A stretch of 64,000 nucleotides of DNA from Escherichia coli (GCF_044647545.1 NZ_CP172818.1), one strand, 5' to 3'; numbered from the stretch's first letter, positions 2,898-63,884 are shown. The notes: a model not told the origin generated them from the sequence alone. Translations and numbers: made by a program.

Positions 2898-3350
2898 TTA
2901 AAAGTGGGGAACCAGGTTCGCCTTCTGGATATTACTCAGCGCGAACACTTCATCTTTACCTTCGACGGTAACTGTGATCATTTCACCGTCTACCGCTTTG
3001 ATAACGCCCTGCCATTTACGACGGTTTTGTACCGCCATGCGGAGAACCAGAGTCACCTCTTCTCCGACGAAACGGGCGTAGTGTTCAGCCGTGAACAGTG
3101 GGCGATCGAGACCCGGTGAGGAGACTTCCAGGTTATAAGCAACGGTGATGGGATCTTCAACATCCAGCACAGCACTTACCTGGTGGCTCACATCAGCACA
3201 ATCATCAACATTGATGCCATCTTCACTATCAATATAGATGCGCAGTGTGGATGTGCGACCGCGAATAAATTCGATGCCAACCAGTTCAAAACCCAGGGCC
3301 TCAACTGGCGCAGTAATCATCTCTGTTAATTTTTGCTCTAATGTGGACAA
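2898..3350 (-). CDS. rimP: Ribosome maturation factor RimP
   Basis: ORF contains ...[27 protein letters not shown]...; start placed at an in-frame TTG to give the 150-aa form; located between metY and nusA. Confidence 0.85.
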
Positions 3351-5331: not shown

Positions 5332-6957
5332 TCAACCCTGCCCTTCAGGGGTGGGGTTACCTTGCTTATCCTCAGTAAACTCCTTTCTTAGCATCACAAA
5401 ATCGAAAACATCATGGTTTGCATCTACAACCCGTGAGTCTCCTTTATAGTGTGCAATCACTTCCTCAAGCGTTTGCGGCTGTTCCGGCTTTGTTACCCCC
5501 ATCCACGCATTAATAAGGTAATTATTGTACGCAGTGGAAAAGATATCGTTTTCCGTTGTGCGATCCACGCCATCCCCAAGAACGGGGCTATACCAGATAA
5601 ACATCGGGACATGATATGCCTGCTGGCTGGCCTCCCTGCCTCCATGAAAATAGACGTTCTTCTTCGTAGGGTCGCGTTCCAGGCCGTGGTCGGCAAAATA
5701 CATGACCGAGGCGCGGCGATCTTTTAATAATTCAAAAACCTGACCTAGCAAACTATCTGTGTAATGAATGGAGTTGTCATAGCAGGCATCCTGATCGTCC
5801 TGCGGTTGAAACACGGCGCTGGATTGCGGATAGGCGCTACAAGCCGGTTCATGGCTTCCATTTAAATGAAGAACAATCAGTTTCTTTTGCTGCGTCTTTT
5901 GCTGTAACGCTTGCGATAAATGCGGCAACAACAATTCATCAAATCCTCTGACATAGACTGTTTCCATGGCGCGCATGGCGATACTGGTAACTGCTGTACC
6001 ATTCTGCCGAAAAGCGGATTGCGAGCTTAGCCAGAAAGTCTGAAATCCTGCTTGATTAGCCATATTAATAATGTTGTCCGGGTAATTATGAATGTCATGA
6101 CTCAAAACAGAATCAGCAGTTAAAGAAAGGGGAACCGACAGCGCAGTGTAAGGTGCACCGCTTATTGCTTGATTAAACAGTTTGATCTGTTTTCTTTGTG
6201 CTTCGACTTGCGGTGTCGTAGAGCGTGTGTATCCATACAAAGACATATTGTCGACACGTACAGACTCCCCCACAATCAACACGTAGGTATCAATACCTGT
6301 ATCCCTGACTGATAATTGAAAATACGGCACCGTGTTTGCAATTGAGAGTAATCTTTGATGCTCTTTCGCTGCTAAAGCAAAATAATTGAGATTGAAAAAC
6401 GGTGTATAGGTAGCAAATCGCGACGCTAGTATATATGGACTGAACGCTTTTTTATTTTTTGCATCTTTATAAGCAAATTGACAAGCGGAAAATAAACTGC
6501 CCGAAATGACAATCAGCAATAATATTCCTGTCACTTTTTTTGTCGGCAAGGAAACATCATATTTTATTATTACTGCCAAAAAAAGAAGGGATAAAAAAGC
6601 AAAAGCACATAGATAAGGGATATACATCCCCAGCATTTTCACAACTTCATCCGGATCACTCTGCAGCACACTAATCGCAAATCCATCATTGAAAGTTGTA
6701 CCAAAGGTACACCATGAATAGAGGCTAATACTCATGTCTGCCGCAGTCAGTAACACAAATGGTGCGGCAACAAGCAGGCGAAGCGGAAGGGATGATATAC
6801 GTTTAACAACCAGGATGGTCAGAACGAAAAACAGCAATCGCTGAACCATATGCGCTCCGGAAGAGGCGACTAAGTTCGTAATACCAAAAACAATAACACA
6901 AAGATACAACAACCAATGAGATTTAAAACTTCTAACAAATTTGTTGAATACTGTCAT
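5332..6957 (-). CDS. yhbX: Inner-membrane sulfatase-family (phosphoethanolamine transferase-like) protein YhbX
   Basis: ORF of 552 aa; start moved to internal Met (MTVFNKF...) for the ~541-aa form; N-terminal TM helices then sulfatase-like domain; convergent with argG, 7-bp gap. Confidence 0.75.
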   Translation of the reverse strand: MTVFNKFVRSFKSHWLLYLCVIVFGITNLVASSGAHMVQRLLFFVLTILVVKRISSLPLRLLVAAPFVLLTAADMSISLYSWCTFGTTFNDGFAISVLQSDPDEVVKMLGMYIPYLCAFAFLSLLFLAVIIKYDVSLPTKKVTGILLLIVISGSLFSACQFAYKDAKNKKAFSPYILASRFATYTPFFNLNYFALAAKEHQRLLSIANTVPYFQLSVRDTGIDTYVLIVGESVRVDNMSLYGYTRSTTPQVEAQRKQIKLFNQAISGAPYTALSVPLSLTADSVLSHDIHNYPDNIINMANQAGFQTFWLSSQSAFRQNGTAVTSIAMRAMETVYVRGFDELLLPHLSQALQQKTQQKKLIVLHLNGSHEPACSAYPQSSAVFQPQDDQDACYDNSIHYTDSLLGQVFELLKDRRASVMYFADHGLERDPTKKNVYFHGGREASQQAYHVPMFIWYSPVLGDGVDRTTENDIFSTAYNNYLINAWMGVTKPEQPQTLEEVIAHYKGDSRVVDANHDVFDFVMLRKEFTEDKQGNPTPEGQG

Positions 6958-7371
6958 CCAGAAATCCAAGTTCACAACCAATATAAACAATTATCAACAA
7001 TGTTCAATTTTATATCAGACATGTTTTTCAACTCTGATCCATATCAGACCGAAACACTGTTAGTTTTTTCTTTTTAAATGATGCGGCCATTGTTCTCAGT
7101 AATTAAATAACATTATCAATGCGTCTCTAAACATTACGCAGAACGTAGCCATCAGTAGTTATACTGACAGGAGCAGGATGGTTTATCGAGAAGTAAACAT
7201 ATCCGTATTCGTACCGGAACTGGAGTTGACACAATAAAGTGCCAATTATGTCAGCAGAAGGGAAAAGTTTATAACTAAGGCGTACCGGCACCATCGTTTC
7301 AAGGTACCAGCTACGAGTAAAGCAACTGGACGAGATACAGATACCTGACAACCATTCCTCAGACCAGGACC

Positions 7372-50657: not shown

Positions 50658-50765
50658 TGTGAGTCTCCCGCGGTGGGCGATGCCCACACGCTTTGGTATG
50701 AAAATTGTAGGGTACAGATGCGTTTATTTCCCCTCACCCGGTAGGGGCGAGCGAGGGGAAAAAAC

Positions 50766-51694: not shown

Positions 51695-51717
51695 TATACC
51701 TTTATACCTGTTATACC
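51695..51717 (-). promoter_or_regulatory. NanR operator: three direct GGTATA hexamer repeats (Nan box) in the nanA promoter
   Basis: Plus strand tatacc-tt-tatacc-tgt-tatacc (GGTATA x3 on the nanA strand), about 40-60 bp upstream of the nanA start. Confidence 0.55.
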
Positions 51718-51780: not shown

Positions 51781-52572
51781 TTATTTCTTTTTGTTGGTGG
51801 TCTGACCGAAGGCGTGCCAGGTAGCAGAGACGCTGTTGAGATGCGATTGCAACGCGCGATCGGCTTCATCGGGATCGTGGCGGCGGATCGCGTCAACGAT
51901 CGCAATATGCTGTTGATAGCTAACGTTGTTATGCTCGTGCAGAGCCTGATCAGCCACGGTTGGACGTGCGGCGATCAGCCAGTCGAGCAGGGCAACGTGG
52001 ATCGCCATGAAGATTGGGTTACCGGGGATCTCCGCCAGCACGCGGTGGAAATCAACGTCTGAACGAATGAATGCCGCGTTGTTATCCAGCGACTGACTGT
52101 TGATTTCCAGTGCTTTTGCCAGCAAATCGATTTGCTCATCGGTGGCGTGTTCAGCCGCATAGCGCACCAGGCTGGATTCAAAGAACAGACGTAATTGTTC
52201 GAAATGGGCAATCCCGCCAGGATGAGAAAGGAAATCTTTCGCCATGCCGGAAAGCTCGCCGATGATGGTGTCCGCAGAAGGACGTGAGACGCGAGCGCGT
52301 TCGCCGTTGTTTATCTGCACCAGACCTTTGCGTTTTAACGCTGCCAGCGCTTCACGCACCGAAGGACGCCCGACATTAAAGAACGCCATCAGTTCGCGTT
52401 CAGACGGTAATTGTTCACCTTCGCCAAATTCACGACGGCGGATCATCTGTTCCAGCTCTTCTTCCACCATTTCGGAGAGTTTTTTACGCGCCAGCGGGCG
52501 GCTGCGTAAGTTGCGGCCAATTACAGGTGAAGAATCTTCGGTTTGCGAATCAAATGCGTTCATAAGGCCCAT
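51781..52572 (-). CDS. nanR: GntR/FadR-family transcriptional repressor NanR
   Basis: 263-aa [89 protein letters not shown]... Confidence 0.9.
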
Positions 52573-52951
52573 TCTGTAAGGTCAGTGTGATTAACATCAT
52601 CAGTGACATCCTATCACAGGATTGAAAGTAGGGGGAAATGGCGGGGTTTTCTCTTTGTGCCTCATCATTACTATGATTAACTGAATAATTAACTATTGCG
52701 AAAAATTAATGTAACGCAGATAAAAACATCCCGATTGAATTATTCATAAGACTATTAACAAGTATTATGAATATTATGAATGTGTTCTTACAAAATAATC
52801 ATAAGCGCATATTTTTTAATGAAAAATCACCTCATCTACAATTAAAAACACGACATCCGCACCATAAATAGCCTTGCAAAAAATATAACATCATTGTTTT
52901 CAATCTGCCGTTTATGGGATTGACCGTTTTCTTTTGACACGGAGTTCAACA

Positions 52952-54319
52952 ATGTTCGGCATAATTATATCTGTCATCGTATTAATTACGATGGGCTATT
53001 TGATCCTGAAAAACTACAAACCTCAGGTGGTGCTGGCTGCCGCAGGTATCTTCCTGATGATGTGCGGTGTCTGGTTAGGGTTCGGTGGTGTGCTCGATCC
53101 CGCCAAAAGCAGCGGCTACTTGATCGTCGATATTTATAATGAAATCCTGCGCATGCTGTCCAACCGCATTGCCGGATTGGGGCTGTCGATTATGGCAGTG
53201 GGCGGTTATGCCCGCTATATGGAGCGCATAGGGGCAAGTCGCGCGATGGTGAGCTTGTTAAGCCGCCCGTTAAAACTCATTCGCTCGCCGTATATTATTC
53301 TGTCGGCAACTTACGTCATCGGCCAAATCATGGCGCAGTTTATTACCAGCGCCTCCGGTCTGGGTATGTTGCTGATGGTCACCTTATTTCCGACGCTGGT
53401 GAGTCTGGGAGTAAGTCGTCTCTCTGCGGTGGCGGTTATCGCAACCACCATGTCCATTGAGTGGGGGATTCTGGAAACGAACTCCATTTTTGCTGCCCAG
53501 GTCGCAGGAATGAAAATTGCCACTTACTTCTTCCACTACCAGCTTCCGGTCGCCTCTTGCGTCATTATCTCGGTGGCGATCTCCCACTTTTTCGTGCAAC
53601 GCGCTTTCGACAAAAAAGATAAAAATATCAATCACGAACAGGCAGAGCAAAAAGCTCTCGATAATGTCCCACCGCTCTATTACGCCATTTTACCGGTGAT
53701 GCCGTTAATCCTGATGCTCGGCTCGCTGTTCCTTGCCCACGTCGGGCTGATGCAGTCAGAACTGCATCTGGTGGTGGTGATGTTACTGAGTTTGACGGTG
53801 ACGATGTTTGTTGAGTTCTTCCGCAAGCATAACTTGCGCGAAACAATGGACGATGTGCAGGCGTTTTTTGACGGCATGGGTACGCAGTTTGCCAACGTGG
53901 TAACGCTGGTGGTCGCGGGTGAAATATTTGCGAAAGGCTTAACGACGATTGGCACTGTCGATGCGGTTATCAGGGGGGCGGAGCATTCTGGTCTGGGCGG
54001 TATTGGCGTGATGATTATTATGGCGCTGGTCATTGCCATTTGTGCCATCGTGATGGGCTCAGGCAATGCGCCGTTTATGTCATTTGCCAGTCTTATTCCG
54101 AATATCGCAGCCGGACTACATGTACCAGCGGTTGTAATGATTATGCCGATGCATTTTGCCACGACGTTAGCGCGCGCTGTTTCGCCGATTACTGCGGTGG
54201 TGGTCGTTACGTCAGGAATTGCAGGCGTTTCGCCTTTTGCGGTAGTGAAGCGGACAGCGATCCCCATGGCAGTCGGTTTCGTGGTGAATATGATTGCCAC
54301 TATCACGCTATTTTATTAA
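52952..54319 (+). CDS. dcuD: Anaerobic C4-dicarboxylate transporter DcuC-family protein DcuD
   Basis: ORF track starts at a TTG (52934); start placed at ATG 52952 ([43 protein letters not shown]...) with GGAG 8 bp upstream; multi-TM, 455 aa. Confidence 0.85.
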
Positions 54320-54362
54320 GCGATTAAAAAGACAAAACAGGCCGCCAGGGCCTGTTTTAGTA

Positions 54363-63256: not shown

Positions 63257-63620
63257 TCTCTGCCCCGTCGCTTCTGGCGGCGGGGAAAATGTTGCTTATC
63301 CCTCTCAACCCCCTGCTTTCCCCTGCGATTGATTTAACGAATAGTGCGTTTTACTGCGACATGTCATTCACACAATGAATACATACGGTAAAAAAAGCAC
63401 ATTATGCAAAATTCATTATCTAATTGAAAATACTAGAATTAAAAATAAATAACCGTGTTTTTAATTCTTTTTTGTTATTAAAATTCACATTTTTAACACT
63501 TAGTATCAACTGAAACAGTTAGCGTGGTATTAATTAGTTCAATAATTAGTGTATACTTGATTTTGTGATATGGGTCACGAAACAAAGGCCCAGCTAAAAG
63601 ATTATGTCGAGGTAAAAATC

Positions 63621-63884
63621 ATGAAAATCAAAACCACTGTTGCTGCATTAAGCGTACTTTCTGTTCTCTCTTTCGGTGCATTCGCTGCCGACTCCATTGA
63701 TGCTGCACAAGCACAAAATCGTGAAGCAATCGGGACCGTATCCGTAAGTGGTGTGGCGTCTTCGCCAATGGATATGCGTGAAATGCTGAACAAAAAAGCA
63801 GAAGAGAAAGGCGCAACGGCCTACCAGATTACGGAAGCTCGTAGCGGTGACACCTGGCACGCTACGGCTGAACTGTACAAATAA
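63621..63884 (+). CDS. yhcN: YdgH/BhsA/McbA-like (DUF1471) periplasmic stress protein YhcN
   Basis: ORF ...MKIKTTVAALSVLSVLSFGAFAADSIDAAQAQNREAIGTVSVSGVASSPMDMREMLNKKAEEKGATAYQITEARSGDTWHATAELYK; start moved to MKIKT (87 aa), signal peptide. Confidence 0.8.
   Translation: MKIKTTVAALSVLSVLSFGAFAADSIDAAQAQNREAIGTVSVSGVASSPMDMREMLNKKAEEKGATAYQITEARSGDTWHATAELYK

Follow-up and report, generated by a model that had tools for sequence, protein, structure and literature searches.

Between nanR and the divergently transcribed dcuD of Escherichia coli lies an unusually AT-rich spacer, and the locus raises the question of whether this DNA silences dcuD, has drifted without function, or serves both genes as a control region. 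The question matters as dcuD is among the few E. coli transporter genes for which neither an expression condition nor a physiological role is known. We analyzed the spacer within a window of 64,000 nucleotides from E. coli (NZ_CP172818.1), in which open reading frames and RefSeq annotation agree that positions 52573-52951 form the complete spacer of 379 bp. The gene order in RefSeq is nanT-nanA-nanR-'dcuC'-sspB-sspA-rpsI, and the gene labeled dcuC next to nanR is named dcuD (b3227) in K-12 MG1655. When 701 bases spanning the spacer were compared with 5426 complete E. coli genomes, matches were obtained in 5419 of them, with 100% in one. The initial annotation had referred to the region as lying upstream of dcuD, which is correct insofar as it adjoins the ATG start codon of dcuD at 52952, and incomplete insofar as a divergent spacer is also the promoter region of nanR. 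Its statement that dcuD is poorly expressed or cryptic agrees with the literature: one report states that most of the conditions tested left dcuD unexpressed (PMC6414658, citing Janausch & Unden 1999), and another report terms the gene silent (PMC12886548). Phenotypes of dcuD mutants in glycerol fermentation (PMC6414658) suggest some expression of dcuD in certain conditions.

The GC content of the spacer amounts to about 0.326, compared to 0.513 across the 64-kb window, where only 0.28% of all 380-bp stretches are equally AT-rich. On an equivalent annotated genome, ranking of the 29 intergenic regions with a length of 60 bp or more placed the nanR-dcuD spacer lowest in GC, the next spacer having 0.369 and the median being about 0.43. 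The composition is patchy, with a GC content of 0.44 in the nanR-proximal 88 bp versus 0.263 in the core, which is 74% AT across about 240 bp, and the genes on either side have an ordinary GC content. The spacer contains 11 A/T tracts of at least four bases, and TpA steps occur at 0.087 versus 0.043 in the window, a twofold difference. Both the strong AT-richness and the A/T tracts reported in the initial annotation were therefore confirmed by counting. The features of the locus are collected in Table 1.

Table 1. Features of the nanR-dcuD locus, in coordinates of the 64,000-nucleotide window; a point in the strand column marks features without an assigned strand.
Feature	Position	Strand	Basis
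nanR, GntR/FCD-family regulator of sialic acid catabolism	51781-52572	-	RefSeq; Pfam GntR + FCD
nanR-dcuD divergent intergenic region	52573-52951	.	ORFs, RefSeq annotation, composition
Conserved block A, predicted nanR promoter; extended -10 TGaTAGGAT, weak -35 TTCCCC	52608-52640	-	Near-invariant in 15 taxa; sigma70 ChIP-seq peak
Segment of ~1.69 kb (AT-rich core + dcuD), absent in 1040/5426 complete E. coli genomes (~19%)	52641-54332	.	
AT-rich core, GC 0.263	52661-52900	.	Composition; GC likewise low in 15/15 taxa despite sequence turnover
Inverted near-copy of repeat unit, ATTCATAAG	52742-52750	-	13-nt arms, 92%; not conserved in Citrobacter
Exact 9-bp tandem duplication, TATTATGAA x2.1	52763-52781	+	TRF score 38; shuffle test 0.3%; within block B
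Conserved block AAATAATCATAAG; minus-strand -10-like TATGAT (52803->52798)	52793-52805	.	TATGAT in 14/15 taxa; scan match TTTTCA-16-TATGAT
Conserved quasi-palindrome C-ATATTT-N9-AAATCA-C	52808-52830	.	NagC/Mlc operator rule (PMC4288165); <=3 mismatches in 11/15 taxa
Conserved block C (AAAAA..GA......CCATAAA)	52844-52868	.	Invariant columns; identity 0.83 in bin 52841-52852
Conserved block D, AAAAATATAACATC, 13 invariant bases	52879-52892	.	15/15 taxa; identity 0.89 in bin 52877-52888
dcuD Shine-Dalgarno GGAGT	52941-52945	+	Invariant in 15 taxa; 6 nt 5' of ATG
dcuD, DcuC-family carrier, RefSeq/PGAP label 'dcuC'	52952-54319	+	RefSeq; Pfam PF03606, E = 9.5e-142

A scan for orthologues, using one genome per species, detected dcuD in Escherichia beyond E. 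coli (three species, with E. whittamii and cryptic clades among them) and in no fewer than 15 species of Citrobacter, and the order nanA-nanR-dcuD-sspB-sspA was constant in all of these loci. Identities to the orthologues were 88-90% for DcuD, 89-91% for NanA, 89-92% for NanR and 87-91% for SspB. In 19 sequences from Escherichia and Citrobacter the spacer measures 356-396 bp with a GC content of 0.29-0.35, and that of the dcuD coding regions is 0.49-0.55. As synteny, spacer length and spacer GC are all kept in Citrobacter, the AT-richness is ancestral and vertically inherited and carries no mark of recent transfer. An alignment of 15 taxa was then judged against the four-fold degenerate sites of dcuD, whose identity between E. 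coli and Citrobacter of 0.37-0.46 was taken as the neutral level. Four short blocks of the spacer turned out to be nearly invariant, with identities of 0.80-0.91, and the remainder is at the neutral level. For block A the identity between E. coli and Citrobacter is 0.80-0.85, and for bin 52793-52804 (AAATAATCATAA) it reaches 0.91 versus a neutral value of about 0.4. Conservation does not exceed the neutral level in stretches such as 52649-52672, 52745-52756 and 52901-52912, and the middle of the spacer (52641-52763) is wholly turned over (identity 0.33-0.46) with a GC content that is still 0.28-0.40 in the 15 taxa. The low GC of the spacer could in part reflect the mutational equilibrium of unconstrained DNA. 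The initial annotation was silent on these short blocks within the AT-rich DNA, which are conserved far above the neutral level. Since they are near-invariant amid neutrally diverged sequence, dcuD seems to keep a selected control region, and the blocks point to specific regulators and not to generic silencing alone. On balance, we consider it probable that the divergent genes nanR and dcuD are both controlled from this spacer, which has been inherited vertically, with dcuD off by default. The spacer belongs to a familiar kind of regulatory DNA, AT-rich regions with divergent promoters, and represents no new type of element.

That block A is the promoter of nanR is a well-supported inference. 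The -10 hexamer runs from 52613 to 52608 on the minus strand and is preceded by TG at 52616-52615, with the -35 hexamer (52637->52632) 18 bp upstream. Fourteen of the 15 taxa have the pattern TGnTA(G/C)GAT, a promoter-like score of at least 6 is reached in the same proportion (14/15), and the extended -10 is the top-scoring conserved promoter-like signal when both strands are considered. A sigma70 ChIP-seq peak with a score of 728 is listed at U00096.2 position 3372531 for cells in anaerobic glucose medium (Myers et al. 2013, PMC3688515, Table S1). K-12 coordinates were mapped to the window by anchoring on the sigma54 site of Bonocora et al., whose motif centre at 3370640 equals window position 50693, and the listed sigma70 peak then falls at about 52590, some 20 bp from the predicted nanR -10. 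Adjoining sigma70 peaks of the same table map sensibly onto the promoters of nanA, sspA and rplM, and among the peaks tabulated for anaerobic glucose (PMC3688515) none lies above the AT-rich core. The promoter assignments draw on sequence, conservation and this one ChIP-seq peak of limited resolution. E. coli strains that lack dcuD retain block A in the diverged form TGcTACGAT. In glucokinase-deficient E. coli recruiting NanK, an IS5 insertion in the nanR/dcuD spacer has repeatedly been selected, and the authors class it with the mutations of nan regulation (bioRxiv 10.64898/2026.02.02.703383). No NanR operator, that is, no GGTATA repeat, was found in 52573-52951, and three copies of GGTATA occur only at 51695-51717, before nanA; autoregulation by NanR, or control of dcuD by it, through GGTATA repeats was therefore rejected.

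Towards dcuD the signals are much poorer. A scan of the plus strand of the spacer with the sigma70 consensus gave no match facing dcuD, and the best conserved candidate in this orientation is a weak TATTTT at 52810-52815, found in 12 of 15 taxa with a median score of 5.4. The plus strand of block D gives TATAAC, which lacks the final T, and the minus strand a good extended -10, TGtTATATT (52890->52882), in 15/15 taxa. Likewise, AATCATA corresponds on the minus strand to TATGAT. In all, three conserved -10-like elements read better leftward. Judged by their sequence, blocks B and D might act in leftward transcription instead of on dcuD; they are not essential for nanR, because the strains lacking dcuD are devoid of them. 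A list of RegulonDB sigma54 promoters from 2011 includes dcuD (PMC3118216). In contrast to this listing, the plus strand of the spacer contains no -24/-12 element of the form GG-N10-GC, and the sigma54 ChIP-seq site that was assigned to dcuD by Bonocora et al. is 2253 bp upstream of it, which corresponds to window position 50693 in the nanT/nanA spacer; a sigma54 promoter for dcuD was rejected for both reasons. With no good sigma70 or sigma54 promoter facing it, dcuD would be off by default.

Further regulators and RNA elements were searched for in the spacer. With textbook consensus sequences for FNR, CRP, ArcA, Fur, IHF, NarL, TorR, ArgR, CpxR, PhoP and Lrp, no site was found whose good match is kept at the same place of the alignment across most taxa. 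A perfect match to the ArcA 10-mer WGTTAATTAW is present on the minus strand at 52685-52694 in Escherichia only. A predicted GalR site for dcuD is located within the coding region (about 53089-53104) and was discarded as an element of the spacer. There were no Rfam matches in the spacer at E <= 1 and no conserved RNA fold in the 5' region (consensus of -2.0 kcal/mol, 0 compensatory pairs), so that a riboswitch, small RNA or leader structure was rejected. The sole terminator-like hairpin found lies inside dcuD.

The weak TATTTT facing dcuD is situated within the conserved quasi-palindrome, which in full reads C-ATATTT-TTTAATGAA-AAATCA-C and which also overlaps the -35 of the leftward TATGAT element. 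NagC, whose inducer GlcNAc-6-P is a product of sialic acid catabolism, and Mlc are candidate ligands. Operators of these two regulators are 23-bp quasi-palindromes in which only TT/AA at +/-5,6 is invariant, C/G at +/-11 being typical of high-affinity NagC sites and A/T of Mlc sites (PMC4288165). The E. coli palindrome has TT/AA at +/-5,6 and C at both +/-11 positions, and the one of Citrobacter has A/T at +/-11. In the 64 kb, 52808-52830 is the sole site with at most two mismatches to the consensus TTATTT-N9-AAATAA. The rule is loose in AT-rich DNA, a comparable palindrome being obtained in 10% of spacer shuffles, or in 0.6% if C/G at +/-11 is demanded, a condition that was chosen post hoc. 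The site resembles the NagC/Mlc operators of nagE-nagB and fimB-nanC in its 23-bp quasi-palindromic form, in TT/AA at +/-5,6 and in the C at +/-11 of E. coli; its position is conserved across genera and the spacer adjoins nan genes. It differs from them in that it is a predicted site only, with a 10% chance level and with A/T at +/-11 in Citrobacter. As a prediction from sequence, a NagC/Mlc operator at 52808-52830 is a lead and not a finding. The fuller proposal, that a real NagC (or Mlc) operator covers back-to-back weak promoters and that DcuD belongs to the amino-sugar/sialic-acid regulon, being induced by GlcNAc-6-P and not by C4-dicarboxylates, seems to us quite improbable. If it were true, induction by GlcNAc-6-P would explain the absent expression of dcuD under the conditions tried to date.

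In the reading that we favor, a control region shared by nanR and dcuD, nanR would be transcribed leftward from the extended -10 TGaTAGGAT at 52608-52616, and the AT-rich core (52661-52900) would constitute the control region of dcuD. The best promoter candidate of dcuD would be the weak TATTTT inside the NagC/Mlc-like palindrome, and dcuD would be off by default with a promoter that is intrinsically poor, activator-dependent or operator-blocked. A coat of an H-NS-type nucleoid protein on the AT- and TpA-rich DNA would likely add an extra layer, as distinct from being the demonstrated cause. With ordinary divergent sigma70 regions between a regulator and a transporter gene the spacer shares the back-to-back genes, a conserved extended -10 accompanied by a listed sigma70 peak, and short operator-like conserved blocks amid freely drifting AT-rich DNA. 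It differs from such regions in having no recognizable NanR operator and no convincing promoter facing dcuD.

The alternative that survives best is that the AT-rich tract is chiefly a nucleation and spreading site of H-NS (or StpA), whose filaments would exclude RNA polymerase and keep dcuD silent as in the cases of bgl and proU. As the principal explanation we regard this as possible, if somewhat doubtful; silencing of the spacer by H-NS is plausible, and a contribution of H-NS as one layer in the silence of dcuD is somewhat more probable than the principal role. The composition fits, with 74% AT over about 240 bp, the lowest GC of the 64 kb, in the lowest-GC spacer of 29, a doubled TpA frequency and the 11 A/T tracts, and the predicted curvature, moderate in itself, is in the top 0.7% of positions, the end-to-end ratio of 0.80 at 52647 (with the wedge parameters used) marking the 10th most curved spot in the window. 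Low GC has been kept across genera despite turnover, as if composition were selected, dcuD is reported silent, and the tabulated sigma70 peaks for anaerobic glucose medium leave the core free. A class of short H-NS-binding regions has been described that lie upstream of genes and behave as normal transcription-factor sites do (PMC3064808). Against this, the high-affinity motif TCGATAAATT is not enriched and has one match only in the spacer, 8/10 with two mismatches (52698, GCGAAAAATT); the tract is short with flanking genes of normal GC, the locus is ancestral and not xenogeneic, and the sharply conserved short blocks imply sequence-specific factors. In the supplements of one H-NS ChIP study (Higashi 2016), whose tables are of undefined scope, dcuD and nanR are not named, and literature naming dcuD together with H-NS yielded nothing that bears on H-NS action at dcuD. 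The initial annotation had considered the composition consistent with H-NS-type silencing; what holds of this is the fit of AT content, TpA steps and A-tracts, together with a silent dcuD and a core free of listed sigma70 peaks, and what speaks against it is the near absence of TCGATAAATT and the ancestral nature of the DNA.

For bgl and proU, binding of H-NS and derepression in hns mutants are documented. The dcuD locus resembles the bgl operon and proU with its URE and DRE in that an intact silent gene under purifying selection is preceded by an AT- and TpA-rich tract, in its lineage-dependent presence in E. coli, and in that experimental evolution has yielded IS insertions in the spacer. 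It is unlike them in that its tract is short, lacks the high-affinity H-NS motif and shows no sign of a downstream silencer, and in that the IS5 insertion reported for the spacer was read as affecting nanR and nan expression and not as activating dcuD.

According to a second alternative there is nothing special about the spacer, its composition being due to AT-biased mutation in a long unconstrained sequence and its repeat being a functionless scar of replication slippage. This alternative concerns in particular the direct repeat of tatgaat that the initial annotation had described as tatgaatattatgaat. The repeat, at 52766-52781, is real, and it is better defined as lying inside a longer array in which a 9-bp unit is duplicated exactly and in tandem, TATTATGAA x2.1, at 52763-52781. 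When the region was shuffled 2000 times with its dinucleotide content preserved, exact tandems of 9 bp or more arose in only 0.3% of cases, which places the duplication beyond chance; its TRF score of 38 falls short of the customary cut-off of 50. Besides the inverted near-copy given in Table 1, a second one occurs at 52797-52805. The duplicated ATTATGAAT x2 is also present in K-12, in O157 and in a third E. coli strain, and it is shared with one Escherichia cryptic-clade species and with E. whittamii, a third cryptic-clade sequence having one mismatch. No variation in copy number was detected: all four E. coli sequences and two of the three from other Escherichia have two copies, and the repeat is therefore not of the variable-number type. 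The first TTATGAA copy aligns to a TTATGAA of Citrobacter and the second to CTGCGAAT or a similar sequence, and block B around the repeat has TGA..GAA..TG positions that are invariant in the 15 taxa. Since the second copy differs in Citrobacter and the positions of the block are invariant, the exact duplication appears to be a feature of Escherichia on an older conserved block, or, in terms of the favored reading, the tandem repeat would have been elaborated, in Escherichia alone, from a conserved block that contains TGAA. The repeat is probably part of a predicted protein-binding site. For the neutral alternative it can be said that conservation over the greater part of the spacer (52641-52763 and other stretches) does not exceed that of four-fold sites, that the second repeat copy is Escherichia-specific, and that the repeat comprises 2.1 copies only, with a TRF score of 38 instead of the usual 50. 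It is nevertheless unlikely, as four blocks are 0.8-0.91 identical versus about 0.4 for neutral sites, the length is kept at 356-396 bp in 19 sequences, the GC is well under that of the 28 other local spacers, the repeat lies within a block with positions invariant across genera, and a conserved promoter with a listed sigma70 peak is present.

A small open reading frame of 34 codons (52767-52871, MNIMNVFLQNNHK...) opens within the repeat, and the repeat might accordingly be the start of an upstream ORF or leader peptide whose translation controls dcuD. In all 15 taxa the frame starts at one aligned ATG, GTG or TTG and extends over 16-34 codons with the common pattern M[KN]xxN[MV]x[LV]xN[NY]H[NK]x[LI]F, and its variable columns are distributed over the three codon positions as 11/7/11, the second position being the least variable. 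This skew is not significant, the frame has no upstream Shine-Dalgarno sequence, its stop position and C-terminal part vary across taxa, and its conservation is accounted for by DNA-level elements; in addition, there was no Pfam match and no RefSeq gene at the site, the K-12 record included. The frame is unlikely to be coding, and control of dcuD through its translation is very unlikely indeed.

In the E. coli genomes without the 1.69-kb segment, nanR is followed by 107 bp and then by sspB. This allele keeps block A and the sspB terminator hairpin, block A being the only part of the spacer that is retained. The junction was identical in all five examples that were read, which argues for a single deletion event. 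Among the strains with this allele are ATCC 11775, Nissle 1917, NU14 and one of serotype O25b:H4, all of which belong to phylogroup B2. As dcuD is present in the outgroup Escherichia clades and in Citrobacter, its absence represents a deletion and not an ancestral empty site; a search for the outgroup context by means of the exact SspA sequence returned only the two E. coli arrangements. The gene itself is included in a published 'extended-core' gene list (PMC12595684). From the ancestral control region, the selected blocks and the loss in one lineage only, it follows that dcuD is more readily seen as conditionally used than as decaying. To the earlier description of the AT-rich DNA it is now added that this DNA is ancestral with selected blocks, holds the nanR promoter and was lost together with dcuD in a lineage to which known B2 strains belong, and concrete sites (blocks B-D and the NagC/Mlc-like palindrome) as well as candidate regulators (H-NS/StpA, NagC/Mlc) can be named.

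A clean 1.69-kb segment polymorphic for presence and absence, and the AT-rich flanks typical of islands, would also be in line with the tract being the flank of a dcuD cassette acquired horizontally between nanR and sspB, which would account for the E. coli strains devoid of dcuD, but this origin of spacer and gene was rejected as hardly credible, given that gene order and spacer are also found in the cryptic Escherichia clades and in Citrobacter, that DcuD has diverged as much as its neighbors, that the GC content of dcuD (0.49-0.55) is normal, and that the allele lacking dcuD shows one identical junction limited to one lineage. Remoter homologues of DcuD, with 42-46% identity, occur in Acidaminococcaceae and Succiniclasticum.

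The divergent spacer between the sialic-acid regulator gene nanR and dcuD, which encodes a DcuC-family carrier, contains a putative operator that follows the NagC/Mlc rule, with TT/AA at positions ±5,6 and, in E. coli, C at ±11. A scan of 64 kb revealed this quasi-palindrome as the sole NagC/Mlc match with two or fewer mismatches. The consensus for the ArcA-P 10-mer is WGTTAATTAW, and the spacer includes one such sequence, which is present in Escherichia sequences only and absent from Citrobacter. Coordinates of these and neighboring features are compiled in the table.

Features at and near the nanR/dcuD spacer (window positions).
Feature	Position	Strand	Location or basis
Sigma54 site 'OA06' (TTGGTATGAAAATTGTA)	50693-50709	+	nanT/nanA spacer
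NanR operator, GGTATA x3	51695-51717	-	in front of nanA
ArcA-P 10-mer, perfect consensus match	52685-52694	-	consensus scan
34-codon ORF (MNIMNVFLQNNHK...)	52767-52871	+	start inside tandem repeat
NagC/Mlc-rule quasi-palindrome, conserved, putative operator	52808-52830		rule fit by sequence

The small ORF that starts within the exact 9-bp duplication was also studied. In 15 of 15 Escherichia and Citrobacter sequences an ATG, GTG or TTG at one and the same alignment position opens an ORF, with lengths ranging from 16 to 34 codons. The ORF lacks a Shine-Dalgarno sequence, and its coding signature was not significant.

With regard to sites determined or predicted elsewhere near the locus, the sigma54 ChIP-seq site 'OA06' had been assigned to dcuD at a distance of 2253 bp (Bonocora et al., 2015), and it is oriented antisense to the nan operon. 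Among the sigma70 ChIP-seq peaks of Myers et al. (2013), one maps to about 51763, near the GGTATA repeats, and a weak one (U00096.2 position 3373027, score 138) maps to about 53086, about 134 bp inside dcuD, where it adjoins the sequence at 53089-53104 that corresponds to a GalR site predicted and attributed to dcuD.

Of 5426 complete E. coli genomes, 1040 lack both the AT-rich core of the spacer and dcuD (approximately 52641-54332). In such genomes nanR is followed by sspB after 107 bp (positions 3174-3280 of comparison locus L002), and the junction has the same sequence in all examples read. Carriers of this dcuD-less allele include ATCC 11775, Nissle 1917, NU14 and O25b:H4, all of which belong to phylogroup B2. 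In E. coli ET846 (L003 2288-3002), a 5'-truncated dcuD adjoins an IS1 element and yhcD/yhcE-type fimbrial genes replace the nan genes on that side, which makes this an IS1-mediated rearrangement at the locus.

A contig of 2.8 kb that carries a Negativicutes MAG label encodes a DcuD homologue with 75% identity (L019 710-2074); it may be mis-binned or transferred. Acidaminococcaceae and Succiniclasticum genomes encode homologues with 42-46% identity (L023-L037).

The nanR-dcuD surroundings are 100% identical to those of strain FDAARGOS_497 (NZ_CP033850.1). The two nevertheless represent different genomes: an offset of about 70 bp separates the positions of the upstream genes (1-49000), and FDAARGOS_497 harbors an IS4 insertion beside mdh (around 61400) that the window lacks. 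Two other strongly AT-rich troughs in the window are located at 63286-63665 (GC 0.316, falling to 0.225 in the lowest 200 bp, 63372-63571), downstream of an argR-like ORF as read from the ORF list, and at 6870-7249 (GC 0.332), near the yhbX/tRNA-Leu spacer.
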